Shown here: positions 6,028 through 37,026 of the stretch, one piece after another
How the letters are laid out: each line of letters starts with the position of its first letter
Numbering within the stretch: the stretch's first letter is position 1
NCBI GenBank assembly: GCA_963662685.1
Contig: OY759745.1
Coordinates: 17,752-81,751 of the forward strand
DNA from: Bacteroidales bacterium
GTDB lineage: Bacteria; Bacteroidota; Bacteroidia; Bacteroidales; VadinHA17
Reading direction: 5' to 3'
DNA: 64,000 bases
Program-made: the position numbers and the translations under genes
The notes under the pieces: generated by a model
Told to the model about the DNA's origin: nothing
The model's input: only the letters and a program-made list of their open reading frames with translations
The model's database searches: none

Positions 6028-6039
6028 TGCTTATCCTGA

Positions 6040-9203: not shown

Positions 9204-9212
9204 AATAGTAAA

Positions 9213-10383: not shown

Positions 10384-10408
10384 AAATCCGGTTTGCCGGC
10401 ACAAATAT

Positions 10409-11242
10409 TCAGCCTGCCTTTCTTTTATATATTTTCTCTTCGAAATTTTCTTCAGTAAAATACCTGGCTGCTCTGCACCAACCAATAGACTCCTTTGACC
10501 CCAAACCAAGAAAAGAATCAGGAAGCAACGCTCTACTGAACTTATATATCACTCTATCCTGAAAATCAGAATTGAAATAAATAAGAACATTCCTGCACAA
10601 AATCAGATCATACGATTCTAATGCATTGTTCTGGACAAGATTATGATACCTGAATTCAGTATTTGACAGCAAACCTTTGTTGAAATGAACCGTATTCCCA
10701 ACATGCATATAATAATCACTTAGTTTACGGTTGCCTCCATATTTAACATAGTTACTTTCATAGAGATCCATGTTTTTGACCGGACACTCTCCATGTCGCG
10801 CTATATCAAGTACGTTCCTGTTCAAATCAGTTGCCAGAATTCTTGCCTTGTCCAACATCCCGGACTCCTCAAGTATGATTGCCATAGTATAAACTTCCTC
10901 TCCGGTAGAACATGCCGTTAACCATATATTTAGTTGCCGTCTCTCCTTCAATTGCGGTAGTATTCTGTCTCTTAAGTGAGTCCAAAAAGAGGGATCCCTG
11001 AACATTTCCGTTACGTTAACGGTAATCTGCCACACAAGTTGATCAGCATAGTCTCTGTCAAACCTGACCATCTCTGTCAATGACTTTATTGTCGGAATCT
11101 TATTAATCTCCATGAATCTTACTATTCTGCGTTTGTAAGAAGAAAAAGCATAACCGCCGAAATCAATCCCTGTTGCTTCTCTCAAAGCATCCGAAACCTT
11201 ATGCAAGTCTCCCAACTCAATATTTTTCACCATTGAATCCAA
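10409..11242 (-). CDS. cheR: CheR-type protein-glutamate O-methyltransferase (second copy)
   Basis: TEMFRDPSFW, WLTACSTGEEVYTMAIIL and DLILCRNVLIYFN are classic CheR SAM-MTase motifs. Confidence 0.9.
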   Translation of the reverse strand: MDSMVKNIELGDLHKVSDALREATGIDFGGYAFSSYKRRIVRFMEINKIPTIKSLTEMVRFDRDYADQLVWQITVNVTEMFRDPSFWTHLRDRILPQLKERRQLNIWLTACSTGEEVYTMAIILEESGMLDKARILATDLNRNVLDIARHGECPVKNMDLYESNYVKYGGNRKLSDYYMHVGNTVHFNKGLLSNTEFRYHNLVQNNALESYDLILCRNVLIYFNSDFQDRVIYKFSRALLPDSFLGLGSKESIGWCRAARYFTEENFEEKIYKRKAG

Positions 11243-16966: not shown

Positions 16967-18844
16967 CTAAAACCTCTCATAATTAGCGTCATGGGCATCT
17001 TTGTTCATGTTGATGGTAACGCCCCGTTTTGCTTTGTTTGAGGACCCGTTTGGTTTAGAATGTTTTTTATCCGGCAAGTTATTGTTGGCTATATTGACAT
17101 TCGCTCCCATTTTAAGACCATGTCGCTCCATAGAAACCATTTCTGATTTCAGTTTAAAGAAAGAGATCATTTCCAGTAGTTGTTGTGCCTGGCTTGCCAG
17201 TTCTTCTGAACTTGTTGCCATCTCTTCTGAAGCGGCGGCATTTTGCTGGGTAACCTGGTTAAGTTGCTGAATGGCGCTGTTTACCTGGTTAGCGCCGGAG
17301 TTTTGCTCAATACTTGCGGCAGCGATCTCCTGAACAAGCTTAGCCGTTTTTCCGATCTCAGGAGCGATAGCTCCAAGCAGTTTCACTGATTCCTCGGTAG
17401 CATTGACACTATTTTTAGTCAGGTTATCAATTTCAACGGCTGATAACTGGCTTCTTTCCGCAAGTTTCCTCACCTCAGCGGCCACAACCGCGAATCCCTT
17501 TCCGTGCTCTCCGGCCCTTGCCGCTTCAACTGCGGCATTAAGAGCCAGAATATTCGTCTGACGGGCTATTTCTCCAATAATCGACACCTTGTCGGCTATA
17601 TCTCTCATATAGTTCAAAGTCTGGTCAGAAGCCTCTTTTACCTTGCTTATGCCCTCAGACGCATTAAAGGCTATCTTTTCTGTCTGTTGGGCGTTCTCCG
17701 TATTTTGTTGAATATTGGCAGCCATCTCTTCCATTGAAGAAGAAACCTCTTCGGCTGAAGAGGCTTGTTCAGATGCGCCCTGACTGAGCTCTTGTGAAGT
17801 GGAACTCATCTGTTCACTTGAAGCTGAAATATTGTTGGCGGCCGATTGGAATTCAGTAATAATCCTGGCCGTAGATTTAACCATATCGGTCAACGACTGT
17901 AAAAGATGATCATTATCAGAACGCTTTTTAAGATCTACAGTCAGGTCACCAGAGGCGACCATTTTTGCTTTTACCACAATATCGTTCAGAGTATTTATGA
18001 GAAGATTCAAATTACTGATAATTATATTAATATCTCCTTTATACTTATCAGTAATCACAGATGGCATATCACCTATAGAAATCTTTGAAATATAGTCAGC
18101 CGCAAGATCTAACGGTGTAACAAGCGAATCAACGACATTATTAAGGCCCTTTGTTATGCCCCTGAATTCAAAGTTTGTCCTCATAACATCGGCCCTTATT
18201 TTAAGGTTCCCGTCCAGAACACCGTCAACAACATCTTTTATCTGATTGTTTACTGCAGTAATATTGTTTTGAATGGACCTTCCAAGAACAAGACCAAGAA
18301 TTATAGCCAGGGCCACTCCAATTAATATAGCGACAACCGTAGCGTTTCTTGTTACGTTTATCACATGGAGAAGATCATCCTCATATATAGTTGTGGATAC
18401 ATACCACTCGGCCGGCTCGTAATAAGTGAAATGCTGGTATTTTATACGTCCTTCCCATTCATACGTGATCTTTCCTTCACCCATAGCGATCATCTCTTTA
18501 AAAAAGTCCTCGTTAGCTATATTATCGCCCTCACTGGTCGGATGAATTATAAACGTCCCGCCTTTATCTACAACATAGCCATAACCATTCGTATAAAACT
18601 TTTTCTCGTTGAAAATTTCTTTTAAAACTGTGAGGTCACTGTCCCTGTGTATACCAATCTGCAAATCGATCATCTGTTTCATATCGGACACCTGTTCAAA
18701 GAGTCTGTCATCAGAGTCGGATATTACGGATTTCCTTTGATTCCTAATGGAATATAACCCAAAGATTATCAATATTACACAAACAGCGAGACTTAGGGTA
18801 ACACTGAGTTTAGCACCTGTAGTCAGATCATTGATTTTTTTCAT
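16967..18844 (-). CDS. Methyl-accepting chemotaxis protein (single-Cache-like periplasmic sensor, HAMP, MA domain)
   Basis: Cache-like [20 protein letters not shown]. Signalling tip [42 protein letters not shown]-terminal tail ...DANYERF. I prefer the ATG at 18844 (MKKINDL...) over the TTG at 18871. Confidence 0.95.
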
Positions 18845-19061
18845 TTTTACATGCTTAAAAGTTTCAAACAATTATGGTCTTGATATTTAGATTTACTTAA
18901 TCACTGAAAATTAAGACAACAGCATTACCATATCCAGTACCGTATTGGGTTTTATGATCCATCTCTTTCCCGTTTTTCAGCAATATCAAATGTAGTTAAG
19001 AACAAACTCCAGTTTTAGAGAATTGTCACCTGAAATACTTCCAGGTTACACCTGTTTATCT

Positions 19062-20225: not shown

Positions 20226-21278
20226 TTATTCCTCCTTAGAAACAACTCCAGTTCCACCTATTATATCACATATTTTGAAAGAAACATTATCTATCTCATC
20301 AACAAGATGGTATGCCGTAAGAAACAGTTTATTACCCTTGGCAAGGGCTTCAGAATCTTTTGAAGAAACGCATTCTATTTTTCCTCCCTTATCAATAAAA
20401 TCAAGGATCTGTCCCAAAGATGACATTATACTTACAAAAAGGTCGTCGTTGTCAGTCACATCATTAATATCGTTCATATTCATCAGCTCGGCGACAACTT
20501 TCCTTGATGTTTTTTCAACAATGGTTTTGGCCTCGAATTCCAAAGCCTCATAAATTTTGTCGTCAAGAGCAAGAACAACGGCTTCAAGCTGAAGCTTCCT
20601 TATTCTTAATATCTTTTTGTACGCATCTATAATGCTAGTCGCGCCATAAGATATGGATTCAAGAATACTGTCTCCTCCAGGTATCTCAATAACCATATAT
20701 TCCTTATCAAGGTATCGTATTTTTGGTTTGATCTCAGATGCGCTGATCAAACAGGAGTAATCCCGTATAATCTTGTCCCATATCCTCGCATATCTCTCTA
20801 TATCACCGATAGAGTTGATACCCGCGCTTCCCTCAAATATCAAAGTCAACAAGGATTTGCCATTATCCGGTTCCTTTTCGTCAACAAACAGCTTTAACAG
20901 GTCAGTATCGGTATGTTTCAACTTGTTGATCTCATCTATCATTATTGTGATCTGCTGTAATAATCCCGCAGGATTAGTCCTGTTGGTCTCAAAAATATGA
21001 ACAAGATTCCTGGCGCCCCTTTCACCAACGACTCCATATTTATCGATTTTAGCCAGCATCCTGAATCGTGAATACAACCAGTCAGCTGACTCGATACCCG
21101 TCAAGTCGTCGATCAATCCTGCTTTAGATTTTTCAATATCAACAATAAGATTTTCACTTCCAGACTTGGATATCATCCGAACCATTTCCAGCAGTCCGTC
21201 AAATTTTGAAACAAGTTGTTTCGATTCTATCTGCCTTTTTATGTGATCAATTAGATCAATGGTCGCTTGTGCCAGCAT
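20226..21278 (-). CDS. Hypothetical soluble protein, unrecognised family (paralog B); between cheD and cheB
   Basis: Paralog of 11739-12767. The ATG at 21278 (MLAQATIDLIDH...) aligns with the paralog A N-terminus (MRIQTTIDLIDH...). The track start at 21323 is a TTG. The gene overlaps the cheD 3' end by 23 nt. Confidence 0.8.
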   Translation of the reverse strand: MLAQATIDLIDHIKRQIESKQLVSKFDGLLEMVRMISKSGSENLIVDIEKSKAGLIDDLTGIESADWLYSRFRMLAKIDKYGVVGERGARNLVHIFETNRTNPAGLLQQITIMIDEINKLKHTDTDLLKLFVDEKEPDNGKSLLTLIFEGSAGINSIGDIERYARIWDKIIRDYSCLISASEIKPKIRYLDKEYMVIEIPGGDSILESISYGATSIIDAYKKILRIRKLQLEAVVLALDDKIYEALEFEAKTIVEKTSRKVVAELMNMNDINDVTDNDDLFVSIMSSLGQILDFIDKGGKIECVSSKDSEALAKGNKLFLTAYHLVDEIDNVSFKICDIIGGTGVVSKEE

Positions 21279-21762
21279 AATATATATTTTGTATCTGTTT
21301 TTCGATATATCTGTGAATAACAACGCCCTTACAAGTATCGAAAGCTATTTTTCTCCCTTGGGCGCCCCCTGTACACGCCCCGGCAATCCTGATATTATAC
21401 TGCTTGAGCGTTTCCATGGCGACTTCAATATTTCTTTCTCCGATGTTAAACTGTGAGGCCATTGTCTGCAGTACTTCTCCTCCTCCAAAAACCTTTGCTA
21501 TTATGTTCCTCCTGTCACATCCAATCTCAAGCATCTTATCTAGCAGTTTTATTATAGCTATGTTTCCAAACTTGGGAGACGCAAGTCCCTGCCCATTCCA
21601 GAGAGGCAGCATATAATGGTTAATTCCGCCATATTCAAGTATTGGATCCCACAAACAAACCGACACGCATGAACCTAATATAGTGGTAACCATGGTCGGC
21701 TTCTTTGAGGCAAACAGTGTCGATGGAAAAAGAAAATGATCTGTATAATCGACCCGTTCCAT
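21256..21762 (-). CDS. cheD: CheD chemoreceptor glutamine deamidase
   Basis: MVTTILGSCVSVCLWDPILEYGGINHYMLP...KVFGGG...IGERNIE, the CheD signature with catalytic Cys/His context. Confidence 0.85.
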   Translation of the reverse strand: MERVDYTDHFLFPSTLFASKKPTMVTTILGSCVSVCLWDPILEYGGINHYMLPLWNGQGLASPKFGNIAIIKLLDKMLEIGCDRRNIIAKVFGGGEVLQTMASQFNIGERNIEVAMETLKQYNIRIAGACTGGAQGRKIAFDTCKGVVIHRYIEKQIQNIYYAGTSDH

Positions 21763-22643
21763 CAGAAAACCTCATTACGTGACGAAATCTCCGAGCCCTC
21801 TTCCCCAAAAAGATCATAGATACTTGTAACGTCCGCAGCTTCAGGGATATATAATCTGAATTCTGACCCCTGTCCGATATGGCTTGTCAACGATATGTTG
21901 CCATCAAGCAGTTCTGTCAGCGACCTGACTATCGCCAATCCGAGACCATGCCCCCTGTTCAGAGAATTTATCCTGTCGTCGACCCTCTTGAACCTGTCAA
22001 AAATCAGCTCTTTATTATCCTCCTCAATACCAATTCCGTCATCCCTTACAGCTACCATTATTCCTTCGCCACATTTTTCCATATTAACACTGACACGCCC
22101 GTTTTCAGTATATTTTACGGCATTACTTATTAGATTGGAGATAATAAGCTTTATTTTTTCTTCATCGATATAAAAAAAACTGTCAGGTAAACCTTTCGCC
22201 AGTACCAGGGAGACGTTCCTGCTGTCCGCTTCATGCCTGAAAGAGTCCATAATATTGTTAATAATCTCTACAATATTAACTTTTGACGCCTCTATATATA
22301 GTTCCCCTGCCTCAATCTTTGCACTGGCAAAAATATTTTTAAGCTGAAAATCAAGGCTGAAAGCTTCATCATAGATCAATCTGATCATATTGTATACTTT
22401 CTCCGGGACTAAACTCTTCATCATCAAGAGGTTTCTCGATAAGCCCAATATTGATGCGAAGGGATTGATTATCTCATTTGTTATGCTGGAAATAAAATGA
22501 GTCTTAAGTGCCTCTGATTCTACTAATTTTTCATTGGCGCTGACAAGCTCCTTTGACAATTCCTGTTGCTCCAAGAGCATATTTTTATACTCGCTGAACC
22601 TGCGTTCAAGTTCGTTCAATAGCTGTTCCTCCGAGATTTTCAT
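21762..22643 (-). CDS. Cytoplasmic histidine-kinase-like protein (coiled coil, DHp, HATPase_c) with the phospho-acceptor His replaced by Asn
   Basis: The H-box region KTHFISSITNEIINPFASILG aligns in register with the canonical [21 protein letters not shown], giving H->N. The CA domain looks intact: N-box NLISNAVKYT, G1 DDGIGI, F IFDRFKRV, G2 GHGLGLAIV. The C-terminus is ...SRNEVF. Confidence 0.8.
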   Translation of the reverse strand: MKISEEQLLNELERRFSEYKNMLLEQQELSKELVSANEKLVESEALKTHFISSITNEIINPFASILGLSRNLLMMKSLVPEKVYNMIRLIYDEAFSLDFQLKNIFASAKIEAGELYIEASKVNIVEIINNIMDSFRHEADSRNVSLVLAKGLPDSFFYIDEEKIKLIISNLISNAVKYTENGRVSVNMEKCGEGIMVAVRDDGIGIEEDNKELIFDRFKRVDDRINSLNRGHGLGLAIVRSLTELLDGNISLTSHIGQGSEFRLYIPEAADVTSIYDLFGEEGSEISSRNEVF

Positions 22644-22673: not shown

Positions 22674-24707
22674 TCATTCTCTATATGAAAACGAACTGAT
22701 TATTTTATTGGGGTCCAGCAATAGGGCAACGGTTCCATCACCCAGAATAGTAGCCCCAGAAATCAGTTCCTGTTGTTTGTACATCAAACCGAGAGTCTTC
22801 AGAACCGCCTGATATTCACCAATAACGTGATCCACTGCCAGTCCAAAAAAAGTATCCCCCTGTCTTATCACTACAACTTCCTCATTAGCAGGAGACTCGG
22901 TTTTGATATTGAACTCTTTCCTAAGATATATGAAAGGTATATGTCCGTCATTGACATAAATAAGATTATTGACCGGGTTTATCAGTTCCTGGTGTTTAAA
23001 CTCCATGCACTTGTTAACAAAATTCAGGGGAATAACAAAAAACGAGTTATCTATACTTACAAGGAGCCCATCAATAATTGAAAGAGTCAATGGAAGTTTT
23101 AATATTATGGTCGTTCCTTTGTCAATTTCGGATTTTATTTCCACTTCCCCCCTGAGTTCGGATATTTTTCTCTTAACCACATCCATACCCACGCCCCTGC
23201 CTGAAATTTTCGTTATGCTTTCGGAAGTAGAAAAACCCGGAAGGAAAATAAAATCCAAAATATCCTTGCCGGCCACATCCTCATCAGAAGAAATAAGGCC
23301 TGAATCCAATGCGCGTTTTTTTATTCTTACCGGATCTATTCCTTTTCCATCGTCGGAGATCTCCATAATAACGTTAGCCCCAGAATAATAAGCTTTCAGT
23401 CTTATTTCTCCACGTTGAGGTTTACCCTTTTCCTTCCTGACTTCAGGGCATTCAATACCATGATCAATACTGTTCCTAATAATATGCATTATAGGGTCCA
23501 CCAATCCTTCTATCATATTTTTGTCCATTTCAGTATCGGTTCCTTCTGTCTGAAAGGCGATATCTTTGTTCATCTCATTTGACAACTCCCTTACCAGGCG
23601 TTGAAAACGGGTAACCATATTTTCAACAGGAATAAGCCTAATGCCAAAAGTATTATCCCTCAACCGGCGGGTGATCTTTTCGATATCCTCAGAAAGCTGC
23701 ATCAGTTCTTTATTATCAATACGCTCTGAAACAAGGGAAAGTCCGGCCTGACGTGTTACCAACTCACTTACAAGATTGATAAGTTCATCCAGCTTATCTG
23801 AAGAAACGCGTATGCTTGATATATTATTTTCTCTGATCGCCCTCTGGACTTTTTCAGTATGCTCCTCTGGTACCGGACCAACTTTATTAGGTTTGCGTCC
23901 CTCCGCGATACCTTCAATATCTGATACCTGTATCTTGTCTGAAGTAACCGCCGCATCGAGAAGCTTAATGAATTCCTCATCAGACAAAAGATCCTTGTCG
24001 CTTATCTTCTTAATCAACAGATTACAATCAAGATCCACAAAAATGAAAACATCCCGTATATCCTTCTCCGACACCTCGGTTGACAGAACAATTACCCAGG
24101 ACACATAACATGAATGGACGTCGAGTTCCGCGAAATCAGGTATTTTCGCAAGTCCCGGAATCACCCTGGATGTTCCTAGAGTTGTCAGTTCCTTAACGGT
24201 AAGTAACGGATTCGTACCATTTTTCAAAATATCTTTTTTCGGTTCAAAGCAGATATAATATGTTGACTTCCCCCCCATGATGGTACCGGATGTTTTTTCA
24301 TTGCTTTCATTTCCTTCATCATTTCCGGTATTTGGGCCCAATAGTCCGGCTATAGACTTCAACAACATCTCATGATTATCCAAAGTCTCAGGGGACAACT
24401 TATCATCCTCACTAAGCAGAACTTTAATATGGTCAATCGATTTAAATGTAATGTCCATAAAATGGTCGGTTACAATATCCTGACCACTTCTTATCCTGTC
24501 AAAGGCGGATTCCATCTGGTGGGTAAAAAAATCAATCTTATCAAAACCAAACATAGCGCTGGCGCCCTTAAGTGAATGCATTGCCCTGAAGATAACTTCA
24601 ATATGCTCTTCATTAGTAGGATCTTCGCTAAGTTTAAGAGAGGATTTTTCTAGATCCAGAATAAGATCAAGAGCCTCTTCAATAAATTTGTACTTGAATT
24701 GTTCCAT
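22674..24707 (-). CDS. cheA: CheA histidine kinase
   Basis: Hpt H-box AMHSLKGASAMFGF. Kinase motifs: HIIRNSIDHGIE, DDGKGID, GRGVGMDVV. A C-terminal CheW-like domain is present. Confidence 0.95.
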   Translation of the reverse strand: MEQFKYKFIEEALDLILDLEKSSLKLSEDPTNEEHIEVIFRAMHSLKGASAMFGFDKIDFFTHQMESAFDRIRSGQDIVTDHFMDITFKSIDHIKVLLSEDDKLSPETLDNHEMLLKSIAGLLGPNTGNDEGNESNEKTSGTIMGGKSTYYICFEPKKDILKNGTNPLLTVKELTTLGTSRVIPGLAKIPDFAELDVHSCYVSWVIVLSTEVSEKDIRDVFIFVDLDCNLLIKKISDKDLLSDEEFIKLLDAAVTSDKIQVSDIEGIAEGRKPNKVGPVPEEHTEKVQRAIRENNISSIRVSSDKLDELINLVSELVTRQAGLSLVSERIDNKELMQLSEDIEKITRRLRDNTFGIRLIPVENMVTRFQRLVRELSNEMNKDIAFQTEGTDTEMDKNMIEGLVDPIMHIIRNSIDHGIECPEVRKEKGKPQRGEIRLKAYYSGANVIMEISDDGKGIDPVRIKKRALDSGLISSDEDVAGKDILDFIFLPGFSTSESITKISGRGVGMDVVKRKISELRGEVEIKSEIDKGTTIILKLPLTLSIIDGLLVSIDNSFFVIPLNFVNKCMEFKHQELINPVNNLIYVNDGHIPFIYLRKEFNIKTESPANEEVVVIRQGDTFFGLAVDHVIGEYQAVLKTLGLMYKQQELISGATILGDGTVALLLDPNKIISSFSYRE

Positions 24708-24814: not shown

Positions 24815-25180
24815 TCAGTTAAGCACCTTGTAAATAGCGCTTATAAGCTTGGCGGGTACAAAAGGTTTAATGATCCACCCAGTAGCACCGGCATCCCTGG
24901 CTTCAAGTTTCTTTTCCACCTGAGATTCGGTGGTAAGGAACAAAATAGGAATCAGCTTATAGTTCTCGTTATTTCTAACTGCCTTAATCAGCTCAATACC
25001 ATTCATAACTGGCATGTGTAAATCAGTTATAATAAGATCAATCTTATCGCCGTTAAGGAATTTAAGAGCGTCGTGTCCGTTAATCCCCACTTTTACCTTG
25101 AACCCCTCGTTCTCTAGAGTAAAAGAGACCACTTCTCTTATACTCTCTGAATCATCTACGATTAAAATAGTTCGTTCCAT
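24815..25180 (-). CDS. cheY: CheY single-domain response regulator
   Basis: ILIVDDSE, IITDLHMPVMNG, LFLTTES and WIIKPF: all receiver signature residues are present. Confidence 0.9.
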   Translation of the reverse strand: MERTILIVDDSESIREVVSFTLENEGFKVKVGINGHDALKFLNGDKIDLIITDLHMPVMNGIELIKAVRNNENYKLIPILFLTTESQVEKKLEARDAGATGWIIKPFVPAKLISAIYKVLN

Positions 25181-25198: not shown

Positions 25199-25525
25199 TT
25201 ATTGCCTAATGTTTATCATGTCCCCAAATCCGGTATTACACATAAGATCAACCACATAAATTTCATCATCGCAATTAATCAACAACGATTGCCCCATATC
25301 TGCCAACTTTTTTCGATATGAGTAAAGCACCTGTATGCTGGTCAGGTCATATGAATCTATATTTCTAAGGTCAATTACGACATTGCTCCCATCCGGGTTC
25401 AACGATTCAAGGGCATGTTTCAGATTAATTATTTCCTTTACTGCGATATCGCCCTCAAGTTTAATATGATAAAGGTTATCGCTTTCATTTGTACCCGATT
25501 GTATTTTGAATCCTGTATTACTCAT
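25199..25525 (-). CDS. STAS-domain protein (anti-sigma-antagonist-like)
   Basis: The 108-aa ORF has the pattern IKLEGDIAVKEI...VVIDLRNIDSYDLTSIQVLYSYRKKL. The Ser in IDS sits at the position phosphorylated in SpoIIAA/RsbV-type proteins. Confidence 0.7.
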   Translation of the reverse strand: MSNTGFKIQSGTNESDNLYHIKLEGDIAVKEIINLKHALESLNPDGSNVVIDLRNIDSYDLTSIQVLYSYRKKLADMGQSLLINCDDEIYVVDLMCNTGFGDMINIRQ

Positions 25526-25537
25526 GTTTACATATAA

Positions 25538-27322
25538 TTAAAACAGCTCTATATCATAATCATCCGTATTATCCTTCGCGGAAATGCTATCGGTGAAACC
25601 ATCGTTTATAACCTGATCATGAACAATCCTTTCGCTAGCTACCGTATAAAACACTTCCATCTCTTTGAGATTCTTCTCTTTCAGACTTTTACAACTACTT
25701 TCCCCATCTTTTTTCAACCGATAGTTAATCATATCTAACTTGCCAATAATATTAGCCAGAAGTTTTTCGAATAATTCATTATAATCGGCCTGGTTCAATA
25801 TGTTCTTCAGACGATCCATAACGTCTTTCTTGATGCTTCCATTCTCAACTATAACTGCATCCATATTTTTGCCTTCAACATCAAGCTGATCAAGTACTTT
25901 ACTGACTTTGACCATGACTTTTATCTGTTCTTCTTCAAGAGAGGTCCTAAAACCCGAATTATCGAACTTAACCTGGAATGCTTCCGATAATCCTCTAAAC
26001 TCTGACAATTCCTTCTCCATTTCAGAATTTTTTTCGAAAATATCTCCGATCAATGATGCTATTTGAACCACTATATTGGGCTTTTCTGCAGCATTATTCC
26101 TTGAAAAAACACTTATAGGTATTCCCGGTTCAAGATTTTTCAAAGGCCTAGTCAATGATTTATTCGCTTTATCGCAAACCTTATCGACCAAACCCCTAAT
26201 ACTAAGCAAGTCAGCATTAAATATATTCGAATTGTATTCATCAAGAACCATAAGGAACCTGTCGAGCCGACCTTTCACGACATTTAATAGAGTTGTCCCG
26301 GAATCGGATTCATCCAGAGAAAATTCATGCGAAACCGTTGATACCATAGTAATATCACCAGCAATCTTCTGGAAATTCCGGGAAATGACATCAAGGGCAT
26401 TCTGATACTCCTTTGAGATAAGAATCAGTTGAGCCGACTGGAGTCCGGAAAGGTCGGCTATAAGCGACAATATATCATCATCATCGCTGATAATTATGTC
26501 GCCGCCATGTTCATCAAGCTTAGCCACCAGTTTCGCCGTGATTTTCTCGTGCGACTCATGGATATGCTCTATTTTCTGCCTTATTATATCATGATACTGC
26601 AGGTGCTTGATAATATTGGCAATAGAATCTGTCGTACTTTTCAACTTTTCCCTGATTTCTGGAACATACATCCTTGATTCCATCTTTTTCTTTTTTATCA
26701 ATGAAATAGACGATTTCAGTTCTTCAAAAAAAACCGCATTTATGGCAATACATTTTTGTGAATGCGACCTTACGGCATCGTTCAGAGTTTCCAGTTTTTT
26801 TCTGACAATAACAGTATGCTCATCGAGTACCGTCAAACAGGCAAGAATACCGTCAACATACTTTTCCCATCTGTTTATTTCACCCAAAGCAATAACCGAC
26901 AGCTCCTCGTTTCTTGAAATGACTTTATAATTTGAGAACAGAAATTTCAGTGTCAGCATATCCTGCTTCATATTTCTTATCAGCAACAAAATACTATCAG
27001 CCTTAGCGTTAAGCTTTGACTCTGTCATAAGATTTACATCCAGTTCATTCTCGGTGCCAGATCTGAAATCAACATATTCATCAAATATGTCGTACAATTC
27101 GGATGAAAAAGAGTAATCACCGTTATCCGCTATCGAATCAAATATATGTGTCGCATTGGACGTAACTGTGTTATTCTTTTTAGAATAGTCTTTCAGAAAA
27201 CTATTTAAATGCATAAACACCTGCGATGAACTGTCATATAGTTCACGGATTATCAAGTCAATATCATGAAAGACTCCAAGAAGCTCTCCAATTTTAATAT
27301 ACCTGTCGTCCTGTTTCAACAT
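25538..27322 (-). CDS. Hypothetical 594-aa helical protein with an HDxxxQ motif and an acidic C-terminal tail
   Basis: The ORF has no TM helix or signal peptide. The central segment is IIKHLQYHDIIRQKIEHIHESHEKI and the C-terminus is ...KDNTDDYDIELF. It sits 12 nt upstream of the STAS gene. Confidence 0.8.
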   Translation of the reverse strand: MLKQDDRYIKIGELLGVFHDIDLIIRELYDSSSQVFMHLNSFLKDYSKKNNTVTSNATHIFDSIADNGDYSFSSELYDIFDEYVDFRSGTENELDVNLMTESKLNAKADSILLLIRNMKQDMLTLKFLFSNYKVISRNEELSVIALGEINRWEKYVDGILACLTVLDEHTVIVRKKLETLNDAVRSHSQKCIAINAVFFEELKSSISLIKKKKMESRMYVPEIREKLKSTTDSIANIIKHLQYHDIIRQKIEHIHESHEKITAKLVAKLDEHGGDIIISDDDDILSLIADLSGLQSAQLILISKEYQNALDVISRNFQKIAGDITMVSTVSHEFSLDESDSGTTLLNVVKGRLDRFLMVLDEYNSNIFNADLLSIRGLVDKVCDKANKSLTRPLKNLEPGIPISVFSRNNAAEKPNIVVQIASLIGDIFEKNSEMEKELSEFRGLSEAFQVKFDNSGFRTSLEEEQIKVMVKVSKVLDQLDVEGKNMDAVIVENGSIKKDVMDRLKNILNQADYNELFEKLLANIIGKLDMINYRLKKDGESSCKSLKEKNLKEMEVFYTVASERIVHDQVINDGFTDSISAKDNTDDYDIELF

Positions 27323-27339: not shown

Positions 27340-29304
27340 CTAAAAGAGATCTACCGATATCTGTTGGGCGAAAATCGTGAATGTCTCATTGTTTCCTACC
27401 TTCGCCCTTGTTAATGTGACCAGCATGTCATAATCCCTGCCGTCTTCACTGACCCAGCTTACCTCAGTCCTTACACCCAACTCCCTTTGTTCTCCGTTTA
27501 TTCCCGAATATGCGGTATATGAACCGTTCTTCTGTTCGAGTTTAAGCGGAATGATATCCTCTATCATTCTGCCCATGATGGTACTGCGCTGAATGCCCCA
27601 GGTCTCTTCGGCAGTTTTATTGAAATATTCTATCTTGCCTGTATGGTCAAAGCTTATCACACTATCAACACACCCCTCAAGAATAGCGATATTTTTTGCC
27701 TTTTCCGTCTCTATATCAATGATCTTTTTCTTAAGTCCGGTACTCGCCTCTTCTAATTTTTCGCTCAGGTTCTGTTTAATATCTTCAAGCTCACGAGTAT
27801 ATACCTGAAGTTTATCTCCCTGCATCCTGAGTTCCTCTGCCTGTCTCTTCGTCTCCAGTTCAACGTTCTTTTTCTCAGTAATATCAGTAGCCAGGGCAAT
27901 CACCTTATATGGTATACCATCCTTATTCAACGCTGGTGTATAAGACGCATTCAGCCATATCTCACGACCGGTTCTGGTCACTCTCTTGAAATCGCCACTT
28001 TGAAGCTTTCCAGTGACCAACTGTTTCCAGAATTCGTTATAAAATTCTATTGGTTCATTGGATTTGTCCGCGAATATCCTGTCTGTCTGGTTTACTATCT
28101 CTTCAATGGAATACCCCATCATGTCAAGAAACTTATTGTTGGCGTCAATTATCCTTCCCGACATATCGAATTCAACAGTAGCGATGGTATTGTTTATGGC
28201 AGTGAAAATACCGATTCTCTCAACTTCCCGCTGCTGCATCTCCTCCTGTGTAGCGTTCATCTCCTCCATGCTCTGACGCAACTCTTCCTCCTGTGTACGT
28301 AGCTCCTCGGTCAGCTTTTGGGAGTCCTGAAGCAACTTCTTTGTTTGCTTGTTGATGTTAGTCCGTGAGATGGTTGACGCGACAATCTCCGCCAGTCTCT
28401 CTACGAACTCTATTTCGAATGGTTCAAATTGTCTGAAAGAGGCAAACTCCATAACCCCAAAAAGCTCCTCGTTAAATAGTAACGGAACTATCAAAATGCT
28501 TGTAGGATTGGCATCTCCGAGCCCTGAAGTAATTTTTATAAAGCTATCAGGAACATCGATAAGATAGATCGTACCCTTCTCTATAGCAGCCTGTCCTATC
28601 AACCCTTCACCAATCTTAATTTTTTTGGAGATATATTTTTTTCTGTTCCATGCATAAACAGAAACCATCTCAAGAAAGGGGTCGTCCTTATTATCGTTAT
28701 TAAAAAGATACATTGCCCCCTGATTTACGGCAAGGTATTTGATCAGATCCGACAGAAACCTATCAAACAAGACTTTAAGATCGTCAACATTATCCCTCAA
28801 TATGGCTCCAAACCTGGCAATACCTTCTGTTGACCATTGTGCCCGGGCATCTTCTGTCACAAGCTTGTGGAGTTTATCCCTCATACCCTTAATTGAGTAT
28901 CCCAACTTATCATCTTCACTCAATACAACATATTCTATATTGAAATTTCCGTCGCCAATCTTTTCCAGAAAATCGGCCTGTTCAAACTGATTCTTAACGA
29001 TCAAGTTGATATATTGAGAGATATTGCCAAACTCATCCTTGCTTTCAAGTTTTATCTTGGCGTCAAGATCGCCTACCGAGATCATCCGCAACACTCTCTC
29101 TATCTCCTTGACAGGAATATAAATGTATCTGTGTATAATTCTGTATACAAGGTACAATGCGATCATCCATATTGCCAGCACTATTATTAAAGACGAAACC
29201 TGTCCGTAAATTGCCGGCAGGGAGATATTTCTAAGAACGAACACAACACCACTGATAATAATAACCAGTAATAATGCCAATATTAGATTGATCTTCGATC
29301 GCAT
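27340..29304 (-). CDS. Membrane sensor: 2 TM, HAMP, GAF, coiled coil, PAS, PAS, with no recognisable output domain
   Basis: HAMP: PVKEIERVLRMISVGDLDAKI. GAF: GQAAIEKGTIYLIDVPDSFIKITSGLGDANPTSILIVPLL...VMEFASFRQF. Two PAS-like segments follow. The protein ends right after the second PAS (...QQISVDLF). Confidence 0.8.
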   Translation of the reverse strand: MRSKINLILALLLVIIISGVVFVLRNISLPAIYGQVSSLIIVLAIWMIALYLVYRIIHRYIYIPVKEIERVLRMISVGDLDAKIKLESKDEFGNISQYINLIVKNQFEQADFLEKIGDGNFNIEYVVLSEDDKLGYSIKGMRDKLHKLVTEDARAQWSTEGIARFGAILRDNVDDLKVLFDRFLSDLIKYLAVNQGAMYLFNNDNKDDPFLEMVSVYAWNRKKYISKKIKIGEGLIGQAAIEKGTIYLIDVPDSFIKITSGLGDANPTSILIVPLLFNEELFGVMEFASFRQFEPFEIEFVERLAEIVASTISRTNINKQTKKLLQDSQKLTEELRTQEEELRQSMEEMNATQEEMQQREVERIGIFTAINNTIATVEFDMSGRIIDANNKFLDMMGYSIEEIVNQTDRIFADKSNEPIEFYNEFWKQLVTGKLQSGDFKRVTRTGREIWLNASYTPALNKDGIPYKVIALATDITEKKNVELETKRQAEELRMQGDKLQVYTRELEDIKQNLSEKLEEASTGLKKKIIDIETEKAKNIAILEGCVDSVISFDHTGKIEYFNKTAEETWGIQRSTIMGRMIEDIIPLKLEQKNGSYTAYSGINGEQRELGVRTEVSWVSEDGRDYDMLVTLTRAKVGNNETFTIFAQQISVDLF

Positions 29305-29366: not shown

Positions 29367-30272
29367 TTATTGATTGTAAATGAGCCGGGAACGTATTTCC
29401 CTTACAAGATTAGCGACTTCATCAACCTGTTCGTACGAGATCATGGCCTTTGAAGTACTTTTATCTACTATCACCAGCCTGCCATCAATCTCAACAGCCT
29501 CTGGCTCCCGATATTCATATGATATTGTTATTTCAGAGTAAAGATACTTAAGGTCGTTCATATCAGCCAGAATATCTATGAAATAACTATCTTCCGAGTA
29601 AGCCGATAGCCCCAGGATAAGTTGGTCTATAATAGCTTTCTGATGACCAATCCATTGCATGATATCGTCATTATTCCGTATCATATAATTCTGAGACGCG
29701 ATGTAAAGACCCTCAAGCCACGTACCAAAAACCATCAATATACTCATGTTACTTCTTTTCTTGGAACGCAGGAAAGAATCCATGTTATTGAAATTAATGG
29801 TTGTCAGATAAATGAGAGAATCCATCTGGGAACTGTTCGATGCCATCCGTTTGATTGTCGCGAAATCAAAAAACTGGCCTATATCTATATCGTCCGCCAG
29901 TTTTTGAATAGTGCCCAGATAGTTTATCATCAAATATGTCTTTTCATAAATATTGATATATCCCATATCAGCGCTGTAAACGCCAAGTCCCAGGGCTTTG
30001 GACATATCGTTGGTATAAAGCTGAATGTTATCAATATCATTAAGAAACTCCTCCTCAAAATCAATCCCGTTGTGCTCAAGAACCATCGCAATCTCTATAG
30101 GAGATGGAATTGATTCTATTATTTCATTCATAGATTCTTCCGAAATCTCCAGATTCTCAGATTCTTCAGCGAGTAAGGAATCGATGGAGAGTTTATCATT
30201 ATTTGCTTGTCTCCCTCCACATGCTGATAACAAAATAGCTATAGCGACTAAAAAAACGATTTTTATCTTCAT
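29367..30272 (-). CDS. Hypothetical lipoprotein
   Basis: The lipobox MKIKIVFLVAIAILLSAC appears if translation starts at the ATG at 30272; the track start at 30302 adds 10 aa. I recognise no family. Confidence 0.65.
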   Translation of the reverse strand: MKIKIVFLVAIAILLSACGGRQANNDKLSIDSLLAEESENLEISEESMNEIIESIPSPIEIAMVLEHNGIDFEEEFLNDIDNIQLYTNDMSKALGLGVYSADMGYINIYEKTYLMINYLGTIQKLADDIDIGQFFDFATIKRMASNSSQMDSLIYLTTINFNNMDSFLRSKKRSNMSILMVFGTWLEGLYIASQNYMIRNNDDIMQWIGHQKAIIDQLILGLSAYSEDSYFIDILADMNDLKYLYSEITISYEYREPEAVEIDGRLVIVDKSTSKAMISYEQVDEVANLVREIRSRLIYNQ

Positions 30273-30308
30273 GAATATATAATTTGAAATTTCCGAAACC
30301 ATTTTTAT

Positions 30309-30821
30309 TTATTGTTTTATTCCAAGGATGCACATCCCACATCCTGATTTTGAATTCTTAAACTGTACCCTCATGTAATAAAGTCCTGTAGCCGAGCATA
30401 AAAACTTCAGATTCGAAAAAACCTCGCCATCTTCCCGGCAAGTAGAGGCTATAAGCCTGTCTTCCCGGTCATAAAGATTGATTATAATATTAGCACTGCT
30501 CTCCTCCTTCCCTTCACACGCTATAATTATATACTCCGCTCCTTCACTGAATACATAATAGAGTTCAGACTTATCCATTTTTCTCTTACTGGAAACAAAT
30601 GATTGAATATAGTGGTACTCCTCCAGATTGACGGAACAGCTATGTAGAAATGCCCCCGTATCACACTGCCCATATGAAGTATATGAAAAAAGAAAGGCAC
30701 ACATAAATACACAGATTGTATATAAACATCCCCGGCTTTTATCCAAATACCCTCTATTCAATGAATAACTCTCCATGTATTTAATTTTCATCTCAGATTT
30801 TTTTCGCATAAATTTTGGCAT
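30309..30821 (-). CDS. Small secreted PPC-like protein, paralog of 1316-1750 (start codon uncertain)
   Basis: Hydrophobic leader ...CVFMCAFLFSYTSYGQ. Blocks YIIIACEG...IIINLYDREDRLIAST...FLCSATGLYYMRVQF...GCGMCILGI align by eye with 1316-1750. Confidence 0.55.
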   Translation of the reverse strand: MPKFMRKKSEMKIKYMESYSLNRGYLDKSRGCLYTICVFMCAFLFSYTSYGQCDTGAFLHSCSVNLEEYHYIQSFVSSKRKMDKSELYYVFSEGAEYIIIACEGKEESSANIIINLYDREDRLIASTCREDGEVFSNLKFLCSATGLYYMRVQFKNSKSGCGMCILGIKQ

Positions 30822-31099: not shown

Positions 31100-31762
31100 C
31101 TATCTAATGTCAACAAGCCTGTTTTTAACGGCATAAATTACCAGCCCCAGCGAGTCTTTAACTCCAACCTTATTTATCATTATAGATTTATAATTCTCCA
31201 GGGTACGTTGGCTTATTGACAGGTCTTTTGAGATTTCCGCATTCGTTTTTCCCAGGCAGATCATCTTTAGTATTGACTGTTCCATCATATTCATTCTTAC
31301 GAATGTTTTGTTTTGCGTGGCTACCTCTGAAACAGGGCCCTGTTTCTTGGATATTAATTTATGTATAAGTTTCGGGGAAAAGTATTGTTCGCCTTTTACC
31401 ACTGATCGAATTGCCCTGAACAGTTCTTCCTTTCCTGAATCTTTCAAGATATATCCGGAAATGCCAGATGAGACTAATCGGTCATAGTACTCTTTATCAC
31501 TTAACATAGACAGTACTATTATCTTAAGTTCTGGTTGTTTCTTCAGTGCGGCCTCAATAGCTTCAACTCCGTTCATTCCCGGCATCATAATGTCCATCAA
31601 GACAACGTTCACTTTAACTGTATCGATCATGTCGAGAAAATCATTGCCATTAGTAGCCTCACCAACAACTTCAATATCTTTTGAGTTGGAGAATACAACC
31701 ATCATAACTTCCCGAAACAACTTATGATCATCGACAATTATTACTTTAATATTATTTTCCAT
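31100..31762 (-). CDS. NarL/FixJ-family response regulator (REC + LuxR-type HTH), orphan
   Basis: REC motifs: VIIVDDHKLFRE, VLMDIMMPGMNG, ILKD. C-terminal HTH: EISKDLSISQRTLENYKSIMINKVG. The ATG at 31762 (MENNIKV...) is preferred. Confidence 0.85.
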   Translation of the reverse strand: MENNIKVIIVDDHKLFREVMMVVFSNSKDIEVVGEATNGNDFLDMIDTVKVNVVLMDIMMPGMNGVEAIEAALKKQPELKIIVLSMLSDKEYYDRLVSSGISGYILKDSGKEELFRAIRSVVKGEQYFSPKLIHKLISKKQGPVSEVATQNKTFVRMNMMEQSILKMICLGKTNAEISKDLSISQRTLENYKSIMINKVGVKDSLGLVIYAVKNRLVDIR

Positions 31763-32455
31763 TTGAATATCATTCATAATATGTATAAAACCAATCACAT
31801 AACCTTAAGCATCAGTATTAACTCTTTAGTCCGGACAAAAACACGAAAACCCAAAGAATAAAATCGCTGTCATCAGATATGATCGGGCAACGATCATACC
31901 AGGAACAGACATACGCTTTACTCGCCTATCCCCCGTTCAGACTTTTCAACGGAAAAAACCAGATCGTGTTCCGAAAATTTTGTTCTTTGTTCTCATAAAA
32001 TACAAACTTTTGATAAACAACAATACTTTATAGGAGTAAAATGTTTATATCTGTTTTACGTGACAATATCAGTAGTTTCAGCGCCAATCCCAGTTTAAAA
32101 CTTAGAATATAGAGCTATAAATTAGTTGCATTAACTGTTCCATTTAGTATTGCTATCAGCAACTTAATCCAATTATTACAAGTTTTTGTTATTCAAAATT
32201 AGCATATTAGGGCTATCAACAACCACAGGATTACCCCCTTTTTTCATGCTTTTATTACTTGATTATTTTTACAATGCACCAGTAAAATCACTGATGAAGC
32301 CTCTCCTGACCCAAGAGAAAGCAAGAGACAGACATATACACTATTGTCTCCGTTCTTTCATTTCAGCCCACCTACTCCCGCAACAAATAAAGAATTCCTA
32401 ACTATAAAAATAACTAAGCACAAATTTTTTGAATGCGGTACATATAACAATTATG

Positions 32456-33127
32456 CTAGAATAGTGAAATATTTACATATTTATTCTTAATGGCGTACAT
32501 CACCAAACTGATTGAATTCTTAACACCTGTCTTGCTCAACAAATTAGACTTGTGTCCTTCTATTGTTCTTAAGCTAAGGCATAACTTATCAGATATCTCA
32601 CTATTTGATAAACCCTGGCATATAAGGTTCAATATCTCAGTCTCACGATTGGTCAGCTTGACTTTATCATTTTCCTGGTCACTCTTGTTTGTTTTTCCCT
32701 TATCCAAAGAGACAAGAATATGATGTAGTATTTTTTGTGAAAAATAATTTTCTCCCGAAACCACGGTTTCCATAGCCTCAATAAGCTCATCTTTGCCCGA
32801 ATCTTTTAACACGTAACCGGAAACACCAGCCTGAACCGCCTTATAATAATAATCCTCATCACAGAACATCGTAAGAGCGATTACCTTCAGATCCGGATTT
32901 TTCGTAAGCGCTCGTTTAGTCGCTTCAATCCCATCAATATTCGGCATAGAAATATCCATTATTACTATATCAGCATCCAACTCTTCTATCTGCTTCAGAA
33001 ACGCTTTACCATTAGATGCCTCACCTACAACTTCAAAATTTTTTAACTTAGAAATCATAAATGCCAACCCTTCCCTGAATATCTTATGATCATCCACCAA
33101 TATTATCTTAACTTTATCCTTAGTCAT
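32456..33127 (-). CDS. NarL/FixJ-family response regulator (REC + LuxR-type HTH), orphan
   Basis: REC motifs: IILVDDHKIFRE, VIMDISMPNIDG, YVLKD. HTH: EISDKLCLSLRTIEGHKSNLLSKTG. Confidence 0.9.
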   Translation of the reverse strand: MTKDKVKIILVDDHKIFREGLAFMISKLKNFEVVGEASNGKAFLKQIEELDADIVIMDISMPNIDGIEATKRALTKNPDLKVIALTMFCDEDYYYKAVQAGVSGYVLKDSGKDELIEAMETVVSGENYFSQKILHHILVSLDKGKTNKSDQENDKVKLTNRETEILNLICQGLSNSEISDKLCLSLRTIEGHKSNLLSKTGVKNSISLVMYAIKNKYVNISLF

Positions 33128-35451: not shown

Positions 35452-37026
35452 TCAAAAGGGAAAATCATCCAAACCTGACCGCACCGGCTCTTCATTCTCG
35501 GGTCTTCTTGAAGTCTTATGAACAGGAGAACCATCAACATATATGGCCTTATAAGGAGTCATAGGACAGGAATACTCACAATGACCGCAACCAATGCACA
35601 GTGATGGATCCACTTCAGGAATAAGCAGGTTGCCCTCATAGGGAATCAGGTAAACAGCCTTAGTAGGACAACTCTCAGAGCAGGCACCACAAGCTGTCTT
35701 TTCAATTTTAACAATACAATTGTCTTTTATAAAATGTGATATCCCGATCTGGGTGCTTTTCTTCGCTTCAACAGTAAGTAAAGATAAAGCATTAGTAGGG
35801 CAAACCTCAGAACAGGCGGCACAATCATAATCGCAGAAACCTTTTCCGTAGTTCATCACAGGTTGCATCATTCCCCATATCCCATACTCTTTCAGAGAAG
35901 GCCGCAATACATTTGTGGGGCATATACTGATACATAAAGAACATGCGGTACATTTCGCATTAAAACTCTCGAAATCACCTGAGCCAGGAGGCATAACAGG
36001 GAAACTCCTCTCCTCCTCCACTGTCGATTCAATTGTTGGGATAATATTGGCTTCCTGTGCCCTAACCGTTGAAGGAATACCGATAGCGAAAGCTACAGAA
36101 CCGGCAACAAACTTACGTCTGTCCATGCCTTCGCCACCACCATCCTTTGAAGGCGGCATCTCTTTTTTTAGGCTCAAGAATCCAAACGAAATAGCTTTTT
36201 CGGGACAGGTTTTTATACAATTAAAACAATTCACGCACCTGGAAAGATCCACCTCATTTTTCATAAAGTCGATACAGGATGATTTGCATGAGACGGCGCA
36301 TCTGCCGCATCTGGAGCATTTTGACTTATCAAATTTAATTCTGAAAAGTGAAATCTTAGCGATTAATCCAAGAAATGTTCCAACCGGACAAATTGTATTA
36401 CAATACAATCTTCCTTTGGTAAACGACATTATACCTACAATAATAAAAAACAGACCGGGTATTATATATGCGGACAGCCGATAGCCTACCACATTGACCC
36501 TGGCTATTGAATAGAGATCAAATTTTTCCAGGAGTGACGCTAACAGATTATTGAACAGGGAAACTAAAGGCTGCACAAAAAACAATACTCCTCTACCGAA
36601 AATGCTGTATGGATCGAGAAGAGTCAACAAATAGCCGCTTGAAAAAATGGTCATTATCAGGACAGCGGCAAGTAACGTATAACGAACAATAGTATGAGGT
36701 TTGCGATAACCGAAACGCCTGAATTTTTTTTTAAATCTTCCACCAATCCTACTATTAATATCCTGCGCTATACCCAGAGGGCATAAAAAAGAACAGTACG
36801 TCTTTCCTGTCACAAACGTCAGTACCAACACTATCAGAAAAGAGGCAGAAAGTATAGTGCCCGTATCAAAATACTTAATTACCGAAGGTACAAATTGAAC
36901 AGACAGTAGTATTTCTATCCATCTCTCCGGAATAAGATGCTTTAAATCAACAAACACCAACAAGAAACAAATAAAAACTATTCCTGAAAAGATGGTACGG
37001 AACAACTTAAGCAAGCTACGCCTCAT
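35452..37026 (-). CDS. Membrane poly-ferredoxin (NapH/MauN-like N-terminal membrane part plus multiple 4Fe-4S motifs)
   Basis: Cys motifs: CPLGIAQD, CNTICPVGTF, CSRCGRCAVSC, CVNCFNCIKTCP, CTACSLCISICP, CAACSEVCP, CGACSESCP, CIGCGHCEYSCP. An internal twin-Arg-like segment (MDRRKFVAGSVAF) is present. Confidence 0.8.
   Translation of the reverse strand: MRRSLLKLFRTIFSGIVFICFLLVFVDLKHLIPERWIEILLSVQFVPSVIKYFDTGTILSASFLIVLVLTFVTGKTYCSFLCPLGIAQDINSRIGGRFKKKFRRFGYRKPHTIVRYTLLAAVLIMTIFSSGYLLTLLDPYSIFGRGVLFFVQPLVSLFNNLLASLLEKFDLYSIARVNVVGYRLSAYIIPGLFFIIVGIMSFTKGRLYCNTICPVGTFLGLIAKISLFRIKFDKSKCSRCGRCAVSCKSSCIDFMKNEVDLSRCVNCFNCIKTCPEKAISFGFLSLKKEMPPSKDGGGEGMDRRKFVAGSVAFAIGIPSTVRAQEANIIPTIESTVEEERSFPVMPPGSGDFESFNAKCTACSLCISICPTNVLRPSLKEYGIWGMMQPVMNYGKGFCDYDCAACSEVCPTNALSLLTVEAKKSTQIGISHFIKDNCIVKIEKTACGACSESCPTKAVYLIPYEGNLLIPEVDPSLCIGCGHCEYSCPMTPYKAIYVDGSPVHKTSRRPENEEPVRSGLDDFPF

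Follow-up and report, generated by a model that had tools for sequence, protein, structure and literature searches.

A 64,000-nucleotide stretch of contig OY759745.1 from a Bacteroidales bacterium, here called the window, carries a cluster of chemosensory (che) genes that all lie on the minus strand. The order is a sensor, an open reading frame (ORF) of 594 amino acids (aa), STAS, CheY, CheA and a HisKA/HATPase protein. These are followed by CheD, a 365-aa protein, CheB, a methyl-accepting chemotaxis protein (MCP), a TonB_C protein, CheW, another MCP and CheR, and then by a second CheR, a REC-less CheB, a GAF protein, a GAF-PAS-SpoIIE phosphatase and two DUF6272 proteins. To our knowledge, chemosensory pathways of Bacteroidota are essentially unstudied, and neither the output of the pathway nor its signal terminator has been established. 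The best-conserved stretch of the 594-aa protein resembles the motif of known CheY phosphatases, which makes the protein a candidate for the enzyme that ends the signal, a component apparently missing from these systems.

An earlier note on the window had placed the ORF directly upstream of STAS-CheY-CheA. The ORF list and the translation bore this out, assigned it to the minus strand and confirmed letter for letter the central segment IIKHLQYHDIIRQKIEHIHESHEKI and the C-terminus KDNTDDYDIELF. The description of the protein as soluble is plausible. Its highest mean Kyte-Doolittle value over 19 residues was 1.64, located in a conserved helix containing polar residues, compared with 3.06 in the true transmembrane segment of the upstream sensor. 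The ORF and its closest neighbours are:

27340-29304, minus strand: upstream sensor, transmembrane-HAMP-GAF-PAS-PAS without output domain, ending in SVDLF; gap of 17 nucleotides (nt) to the 594-aa ORF
25538-27322, minus strand: 594-aa ORF, ATG at 27322, stop codon at 25538-25540; all-helical, probably soluble protein
25199-25525, minus strand: single-domain STAS protein in the position of CheS or CrsA, 12 nt after the 594-aa ORF
24815-25180, minus strand: CheY, 121 aa, the proposed substrate; 65-88% identity across loci
22674-24707, minus strand: CheA with Hpt, dimerisation, HATPase and CheW-like domains (domain scan)
21762-22643, minus strand: HisKA/HATPase protein lacking the acceptor His, H-box SITNEIINPF, ending in NEVF; rival phosphatase candidate or partner

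Family membership and conservation

A word-indexed search yielded 71 homologues, nearly all of 570-611 aa and none with a Pfam domain or an informative name. An exhaustive profile search returned 2,739 representative clusters at E<=1e-3, of which 499 reached E<=1e-30. Its best 150 clusters comprised about 140 near-full-length proteins (565-640 aa) and about ten shorter fragments. Relatives were present in 241 species-representative genomes, and the best 80 of these 241 were almost all Bacteroidales or Bacteroidota metagenome-assembled genomes (MAGs). A search of plasmids for family homologues gave none. Judged by sequence similarity, the 594-aa protein is a member of a large unannotated Bacteroidota family. 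The counts of loci given below for gene order and C-terminal tails rest on 80 of the 241 species genomes (L001-L080).

Conservation was read from alignment A1, which holds 37 sequences of the long family down to 18% identity. Among its invariant residues are Q242, Y243, D245, I246, I247, Q249, K250, H253, E592 and F594. A motif not conserved among homologues would, by the earlier note, have refuted its claim, but the motif is conserved: Q242, D245 and Q249 were found in 214 of 215 long proteins, and the sole long protein without them was a C-terminal fragment. H253 was kept in 213 of 214 long members. Position 244 was occupied by His in 152 of the 214, by Gln in 53, Ser in five, Asp in three and Asn in one. 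The near-invariant block of the family reads [LI]Q[YF][HQ]DI[IV][RK]QK[IMV][ED]H[IV]. It stands beside three further conserved elements:

26561-26602, minus strand: motif LQYHDIIRQKIEHI, aa 241-254, the most conserved block and top 14-residue window of A1 (4.15 of possible 4.32 bits); codons of D245 at 26588-26590, Q249 at 26576-26578 and H253 at 26564-26566
26402-26443, minus strand: block LQSAQLILISKEYQ, aa 294-307, second in conservation and located on the long helix that follows; counterpart of L.ELS.A.L...EY in the short families
26930-26980, minus strand: block IRNMKQDMLTLKFLFSN, aa 115-131, conserved, in the long form only, and lying just ahead of a predicted hairpin turn (aa 139-142)
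25619-25786, minus strand: C-terminal module, aa 513-568, containing DYNELFE and YTVASERIVH; shares homology with that of Cytophagales proteins of 205-250 aa

A bare DxxxQ is not significant, with 1.3 occurrences expected per 594 aa from background ORFs of related loci and two found in the 594-aa protein. The extended pattern [FY][QH]DxxxQ was expected 0.008 times per 594 aa in background ORFs. A stricter pattern with the flanking aliphatic residues did not occur in 384,145 background residues. The occurrence of the motif is far from chance. Since the patterns were picked after the sequence had been seen, its conservation outweighs these background frequencies.

Short relatives came to light in profile searches whose first query was the motif region and whose later queries were the short proteins. 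They fell into two Cytophagales families, one of 201-212 aa (Cesiribacter, Flammeovirgaceae) and one of about 250 aa (Pseudochryseolinea, Parachryseolinea, Cyclobacteriaceae), together with a few proteins of 300-360 aa. All of them contain LQ[YF]HDI[IL]RQK[ILM][EQ]H[IV], the L.ELS.A.L…EY block and an [FY][ST]M.SER block, and their acidic tails end in [IV]ELF or [ED]IFF. Equivalents of Q242, D245 and Q249 were present in 66 of 69 short proteins. H253 was present in all 66 motif-bearing ones, and only in the short families was the His at position 244 likewise invariant (66/66).

Profile comparison supports homology of the long and short families. Residues 226-594 of A1 aligned with profile A4 over the motif and second-block region (hhalign probability 99.6%), and A1 aligned with profile A3 over the C-terminal module (93.7%). 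The N-terminal helices of the two forms were tentatively linked at 49%. Given this shared core, the 594-aa form consists of the short core plus two helical insertions at about aa 66-225 and 336-510, and the homologues of 205-250 aa are reduced to a predicted four-helix-bundle core with the motif block plus the acidic Phe tail. Two other origins of the long form were not supported. An internal duplication reached hhalign probabilities of 7-11% between N-terminal and C-terminal or middle parts, and a fusion with a tandem motif-less Cytophagales paralogue stayed below 1%. This paralogue (hhalign 96.5%) is encoded directly upstream of the 250-aa member in two Cytophagales loci (L089, 9304-10008; L090, 9294-10004). 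It has neither the LQYHDIIRQ motif nor the Phe tail, giving tandem 'dead' and 'live' copies.

Gene order and C-terminal tails

The proteins of the window served as tblastn queries on the 80 loci. CheY was encoded at most 650 nt downstream of the family gene in 61 of them. In 55 of these 61 the gap was 250-500 nt, the size of a STAS gene, and the small ORF of the distant locus L025 was confirmed as STAS. Four loci without a STAS gene still keep the family gene next to CheY. In 36 loci the gene directly upstream was a second cheY of the same strand, and in 34 the family gene was flanked by cheY on both sides. CheA and CheW come next, in most cases together with CheR, the HisKA-like protein, CheD and CheB. 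Both Cytophagales families occupy the same slot, with sensor or paralogue, family gene, STAS-sized ORF, CheY, CheA and CheW, then CheR, CheD and CheB. The family is fixed in the gene order (cheY)-X-STAS-cheY-cheA-cheW.

A HAMP-GAF-PAS sensor was encoded directly upstream in 19 of the 80 loci. The output-less HAMP-GAF-PAS-PAS sensor of the window is a likely functional partner of the 594-aa protein. The membrane-anchored sensor at 27340-29304 may signal via protein-protein contact with it. GAF-PAS proteins hold the same upstream position in Cesiribacter loci.

The protein ends in …DNTDDYDIELF, with a net charge of -6 over aa 570-594. Phe was the last residue in 197 of 201 full-length long members, with the consensus [DNE][LIVMF]E[LF]F. 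In the 80 loci, terminal Phe was a property of a few protein classes. It was found in 76 of 77 family proteins and in all 17 upstream sensors (S[VI]D[LF]F). The HisKA-like protein had it in 30 of 38 cases (EEETF, EEEIF, NEVF). MCPs ended in Phe in 19 of 24 cases and a few more in Tyr, in the classical pentapeptide type [YF]E[KRSQ][FY]. CheY, CheW, CheA, CheR, CheB, CheD and STAS almost never ended in Phe. In Cesiribacter, the sensor ends in VAVELF, the short family protein in NIELF and the MCP in DFEKY. The tail and the genes of the Phe-tail classes are located in the window as follows:

25541-25606, minus strand: disordered acidic tail of the 594-aa protein, aa 573-594, ending in DIELF (25541-25555); predicted local distance difference test (pLDDT) <50 for aa 579-594
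27340-29304, 25538-27322, 21762-22643, 16967-18871 and 13798-15786, all minus strand: genes of the Phe-tail classes

The tail had been taken for a CheY-docking peptide of the CheZ type. This claim was weakened by the 17 sensors with the same tail type and by the related one of the kinase-like protein. A tail common to sensor and family, and distinct from the MCP type, points to a shared docking site and not to a CheZ-style peptide specific for phosphorylated CheY (CheY-P). The Phe tails suggest a docking code wider than the receptor pentapeptide. Two further ORFs of the window end in Phe: the second of two ORFs called NarL-type (32456-33127, minus strand) in NISLF, and a 4Fe-4S-like membrane protein (35452-37026, minus strand) in DDFPF. 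Phe termini may be over-represented more widely in the genome.

The tails also bear on the adaptation enzymes. The chemoreceptor pentapeptide has the consensus x-[WFY]-x-x-[FWY] (NWETF type), in which the aromatic residue at position 2 is essential. The family tail resembles it in that five residues close the protein behind a disordered linker, with Glu in the middle and Phe as the last residue. As a variant of this peptide, [DNE]-hydrophobic-E-[LF]-F could recruit CheR or CheB, and the protein would then be methylated or deamidated at conserved Gln or Glu, or would regulate CheR as CheT does. The window encodes two CheR and two CheB, the family has several invariant Gln residues, and CheT of Sinorhizobium meliloti binds CheR, as summarised in PMC12654446. 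CheR, CheD and CheB are conserved in operons that often have no MCP gene. CheA, CheR and CheB were encoded within 10 kb in 26 loci (L002-L080), and in 18 of these the same stretch contained no MCP signalling domain, so receptors of the pathway are often encoded elsewhere.

The match to the pentapeptide is incomplete. The family tail has Phe at position 5 (197/201) but I, L, V or M at position 2 in nearly all members, whereas MCPs of the same loci, with [YF]E[KR][FY], agree with the consensus, and the carrier of the family tail is no chemoreceptor. Methylation sites follow [AST][AST]xx[EQ][EQ]xx[AST][AST], and no site of this type was seen on reading A1. The signalling domain MCPsignal (PF00015) was absent in Pfam scans of the family, and PDB profile matches to MCPs (E ~0.04) stood amid coiled-coils and were regarded as coiled-coil noise. 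MCPs may also be encoded at other places in the genome. A role as docked substrate or regulator of CheR and CheB is quite unlikely, and a CheY-P phosphatase is preferred.

Comparison with CheZ, CheT and histidine kinases

The catalytic pair of Escherichia coli CheZ is D143 and Q147 (structure 1KMI). DxxxQ provides an acid-plus-amide pair on which both CheZ and the HisKA_3 kinase NarX depend for their phosphatase activity (PMC3510030). CheZ has been described from Proteobacteria, and more than 1,800 CheZ sequences carry A-x-x-[F/Y]-Q ahead of the Asp (PMC7750401). Compared with this signature, [YF]-[H/Q]-D-I-I-[RK]-Q of the family agrees in the aromatic residue, Gln or His, Asp and Gln, while the Ala of CheZ is absent; the agreement is at the level of the motif only. 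The alternation of His and Gln at position 244 is the same difference as that between 'HD' of HisKA_3 and 'QD' of CheZ.

Further features recall CheZ. The family is all-helical and acidic, is encoded next to cheY and cheA, and has its best block, aromatic-[Q/H]-D-x-x-x-Q-x-[IV], on a helix. A flexible linker leads to a short acidic C-terminal peptide ending in Phe. Differences are the length of 594 aa against about 214 aa in CheZ, the Bacteroidota host and the tail, which is hydrophobic-E-[LF]-F instead of DDLLxSLGF.

As judged by profile and domain searches, the family lies outside the CheZ and HisKA_3 families. Pfam scans of 37 long (E<=1) and 48 short members (E<=10) found no CheZ (PF04344), no HisKA_3 (PF07730), no Hpt (PF01627) and no recurring family among these 85 proteins. 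HATPase_c was absent from the 594-aa protein and the long members in Pfam. For the 594-aa ORF, Pfam and NCBIfam gave sub-threshold noise (HD domain at E=0.03 from the 'HD' pair; SpoIIIAB). In hhalign, A1, A3 and A4 each matched a profile of five beta- and gamma-proteobacterial CheZ sequences (plasmid-borne cheZ) at a probability below 1%, and A1 matched E. coli CheZ alone at 0.1%. Sequence searches of the PDB with the single protein and with profiles A1, A3 and A4 returned coiled-coil noise, such as coronavirus spike HR1 and designed bundles. Literature searches for a Bacteroidota che phosphatase found nothing relevant.

The alpha-proteobacterial operon with CheS and CheT is the nearest organisational precedent. 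In Shewanella che3, the STAS protein CrsA is also encoded before cheY-cheA; the gene before the STAS gene is there a REC-PP2C-HATPase regulator and not a helical protein. The alpha-proteobacterial order is icpA-cheS-cheY1-cheA-cheW-cheR-cheB-cheY2-cheD-cheT (PMC12654446). According to that summary, the STAS protein CheS binds CheA, and CheT of S. meliloti and Agrobacterium fabrum (Agbekudzi et al. 2024) is a small DxxxQ phosphatase outside CheZ; by its binding to CheR, CheT has a second docking function. Like the STAS protein at 25199-25525, CheS of S. meliloti is encoded before cheY-cheA. This explains the neighbour and the likely operon class, not the 594-aa ORF. CheT, in the terms of that summary, shares with the family a DxxxQ outside the CheZ family and an operon with STAS before cheY-cheA plus CheD. 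It differs, in a comparison by description only, in that CheT is small, is encoded at the far end of the operon and has a CheZ-like AlphaFold model, whereas the 594-aa gene lies upstream of STAS and the model of its protein is unlike CheZ.

Structures were predicted as single chains with AlphaFold2. The long protein was all-helical with 13 helices of up to 99 residues (pLDDT 78.8, predicted template modelling score (pTM) 0.54), and a break at Q242 preceded the motif-bearing helix of aa 243-272. For the 212-aa Cesiribacter protein (pTM 0.76), the prediction was a four-helix bundle within a single chain, after which come two short helices and a disordered tail; the motif is on helix 2. In a helical wheel, D245, Q249 and E252 fell on the exposed face, 174, 134 and 166 degrees away from the hydrophobic moment. 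The earlier note had proposed to check whether D and Q sit on one face of a long helical hairpin: a helix and an exposed face are predicted, while the core is predicted as a four-helix bundle within one chain instead of the dimeric hairpin of CheZ. Foldseek searches of both models against the PDB gave no match below E=1e-3 and no TM-score of 0.5 or more; the matches listed were generic or designed helical bundles, with no CheZ, DHp (dimerisation and histidine phosphotransfer) or Hpt chain. A metal or haem site was considered for the invariant His, Asp, Glu and Tyr residues in view of Foldseek matches to designed haem bundles and was rejected, as nothing beyond generic bundle geometry spoke for it.

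The earlier note had also offered a DHp protein without catalytic domain, working with the adjacent kinase-like protein or with NarL-family regulators. Such a module would be phosphorylated in trans at H244 or H253, for instance by the ATPase domain of the kinase-like protein, and would pass the phosphate to CheY or NarL-type regulators. HDxxxQ in the 594-aa protein is an exact match to the H-box of HisKA_3 kinases (NarX, DesK) and lies on a helix of a helical bundle. H253 is a near-invariant, exposed His one turn beyond Q249, and NarL-type regulators are encoded nearby; the two ORFs so called (31100-33127) were judged from their translations, outside the Pfam scan. The kinase-like protein itself reads SNITNEIINPF, compared with SNISHEIRTP in ordinary kinases of the same loci. 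The acceptor His was replaced by Asn in every che-operon orthologue seen (L001-L080, L089, L090), while E-x-x-N was kept. Seven residues upstream there is a conserved His, which is part of LKTHF in the protein of the window and of LKSHF in most orthologues. The kinase-like protein could be a pseudo-kinase, serve as a dedicated phosphatase or act as a kinase whose acceptor site has shifted. Since it lacks an acceptor His, a split kinase is conceivable.

The DHp-only alternative nevertheless proved weak. H244 is replaced in 62 of 214 long members (29%), the family has no ATPase domain, no HisKA_3 or Hpt profile matched among the 85 members, and the core is predicted as a bundle within one chain and not as a dimeric hairpin. 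Cesiribacter loci have the family and no His-less kinase. In the Cytophagales loci L089 and L090, a complete PAS-HisKA_3 kinase is encoded beside the NarL-type regulator. A phosphotransfer module of this kind is highly improbable.

The His-less kinase is in its own right a rival phosphatase candidate, because E-x-x-N is kept and the T/N of E/DxxT/N is needed for the phosphatase function of HisKA kinases (PMC3510030). It would then be the CheY-P phosphatase of the cluster, and the 594-aa protein would be unrelated to phosphate turnover. All che-operon orthologues read N-E-I-I-N at this site. The kinase is, however, absent from the Cesiribacter-type loci that keep the family, the invariant motif of the family would be left unexplained, and the two roles are not mutually exclusive. 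This explanation is considered very unlikely.

Candidate functions of the 594-aa protein

The single best reading, ahead of an adaptor, CheR/CheB docking, the His-less kinase and a DHp module, is that the 594-aa protein is an analogous CheY-P phosphatase of the DxxxQ type. It is held tentatively, at less than even confidence. With the same reserve, the protein is regarded as analogous in function, but not homologous, to CheZ, CheT and the phosphatase site of HisKA_3. From the earlier interpretation as phosphatase or DHp protein, the conserved motif, the predicted helix and the linkage to cheY-cheA remain; the CheZ-type tail was weakened and the DHp-only form is weak. A competing CheC, CheX, FliY or CheZ had been reported as missing from the cluster, and none was found in a Pfam scan that covered about 35 ORFs and thus a part of those in the 64 kb.

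The protein would act as an auxiliary protein of a Bacteroidota chemosensory pathway and end the signal by accelerating hydrolysis of phospho-CheY. The motif block would lie on a solvent-exposed helix face, from which D245 and Q249 may insert into the active site of CheY. D245 would pair with the conserved Lys of CheY and the amide of Q249 would position the attacking water, as proposed by analogy with D143/Q147 of CheZ and DxxxQ of NarX. Through its flexible acidic tail, the protein may be tethered to a partner within the CheA-STAS-CheY complex. The two long helical insertions could serve localisation or regulation, possibly by the output-less HAMP-GAF-PAS sensor with the same tail type.

Several observations weigh against a phosphatase. 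No tie of sequence or fold to CheZ, HisKA_3 or Hpt emerged from Pfam, hhalign, PDB or Foldseek searches, and the resemblance to CheZ amounts to about five residues. The predicted single-chain core is unlike the dimeric CheZ hairpin, and the exposure of the residues was derived from a helical wheel weighted by alignment hydrophobicity, not from model coordinates. The near-invariant H253, E252, R248 and K250 as well as the second block LQxAQL..EY are unexplained by a CheZ model. The tail type, common to the sensor and similar to that of the pseudo-kinase, is probably not a dock specific for CheY-P, and the His-less HisKA protein with E-x-x-N in the same operon could be the phosphatase. In about 18 of the 80 loci, mostly from rumen or gut Bacteroidales MAGs, the family gene is located away from cheY and cheA. 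In one of these (L031, 5000-17500), its surroundings include a divergent cheW, a GT2 glycosyltransferase, a DUF4199 protein and gldF/gldG-like ABC-2 genes. Motif and tail are retained outside the che operon in this and about 17 other rumen or gut loci.

Part of this evidence would fit a non-catalytic adaptor or scaffold, whose conserved polar face binds STAS, CheA or CheY and whose tail docks to the array, with no hydrolysis involved. It might, for example, modulate phosphotransfer from CheA to CheY, a role that CheS has in S. meliloti. In favour of an adaptor are the tight coupling of the gene to STAS-CheY-CheA, the rod shape of the long form, built of helices of up to 99 residues with a conserved block next to a hairpin turn, and a type of C-terminal tail that recurs in other cluster proteins. 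The tandem paralogue without motif and tail in some Cytophagales suggests hetero-oligomers, and Foldseek recognised no enzyme fold in either model. The near-absolute conservation of Asp and Gln four residues apart, with CheZ-like flanks, in proteins of 205-640 aa and down to about 25% identity is more typical of catalysis than of an interface, and the four loci that lack the STAS gene keep the family gene next to CheY. An adaptor without activity is possible but rather unlikely, and catalysis by the DxxxQ motif remains the preferred reading.

In a bolder version, which is unlikely, the family would represent response-regulator phosphatases of a new fold class, and their activity would itself be the sensory input, under control of the HAMP-GAF-PAS sensor. 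Sensor, phosphatase and His-less kinase would be plugged into one CheA-STAS-CheY hub via their Phe tails. If this is true, the Bacteroidota pathway integrates signals at the removal of CheY-P as well as at CheA.

The family extends over 241 species genomes and about 2,700 clusters and has no relative in Pfam, NCBIfam or the PDB, while its motif points to a two-residue mechanism. If the phosphatase assignment is true, it is a further independent invention of an acid-plus-amide phosphatase site, after CheZ, CheC/CheX/FliY, CheT and HisKA_3, and a widespread 'hypothetical protein' would receive a functional annotation. The 212-aa Cesiribacter version is a convenient minimal protein for structural work.

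Other genes of the window were observed in passing. Downstream of the che genes, positions 5452-11242 (minus strand) encode the second CheR, the REC-less CheB, the GAF protein, the GAF-PAS-PAS-SpoIIE (PP2C) phosphatase and the two DUF6272 proteins. Together with the STAS gene, they look like a partner-switching output module attached to the chemosensory pathway. Four more ORFs in or beside the che cluster had no Pfam match, all on the minus strand: 20226-21323 (365 aa), 11739-12767 (342 aa), 29367-30302 (311 aa) and 30309-30821 (170 aa). The pair of 311 and 170 aa is kept upstream of the sensor in 9-10 related loci. Most Bacteroidota have no flagella. At 57333-59945 (minus strand), the window encodes a protein of 870 aa that has an fn3 domain and a type IX secretion signal of the CHU_C type, which is consistent with a gliding Bacteroidota host of the type IX secretion system (T9SS) type and not with a flagellated one.

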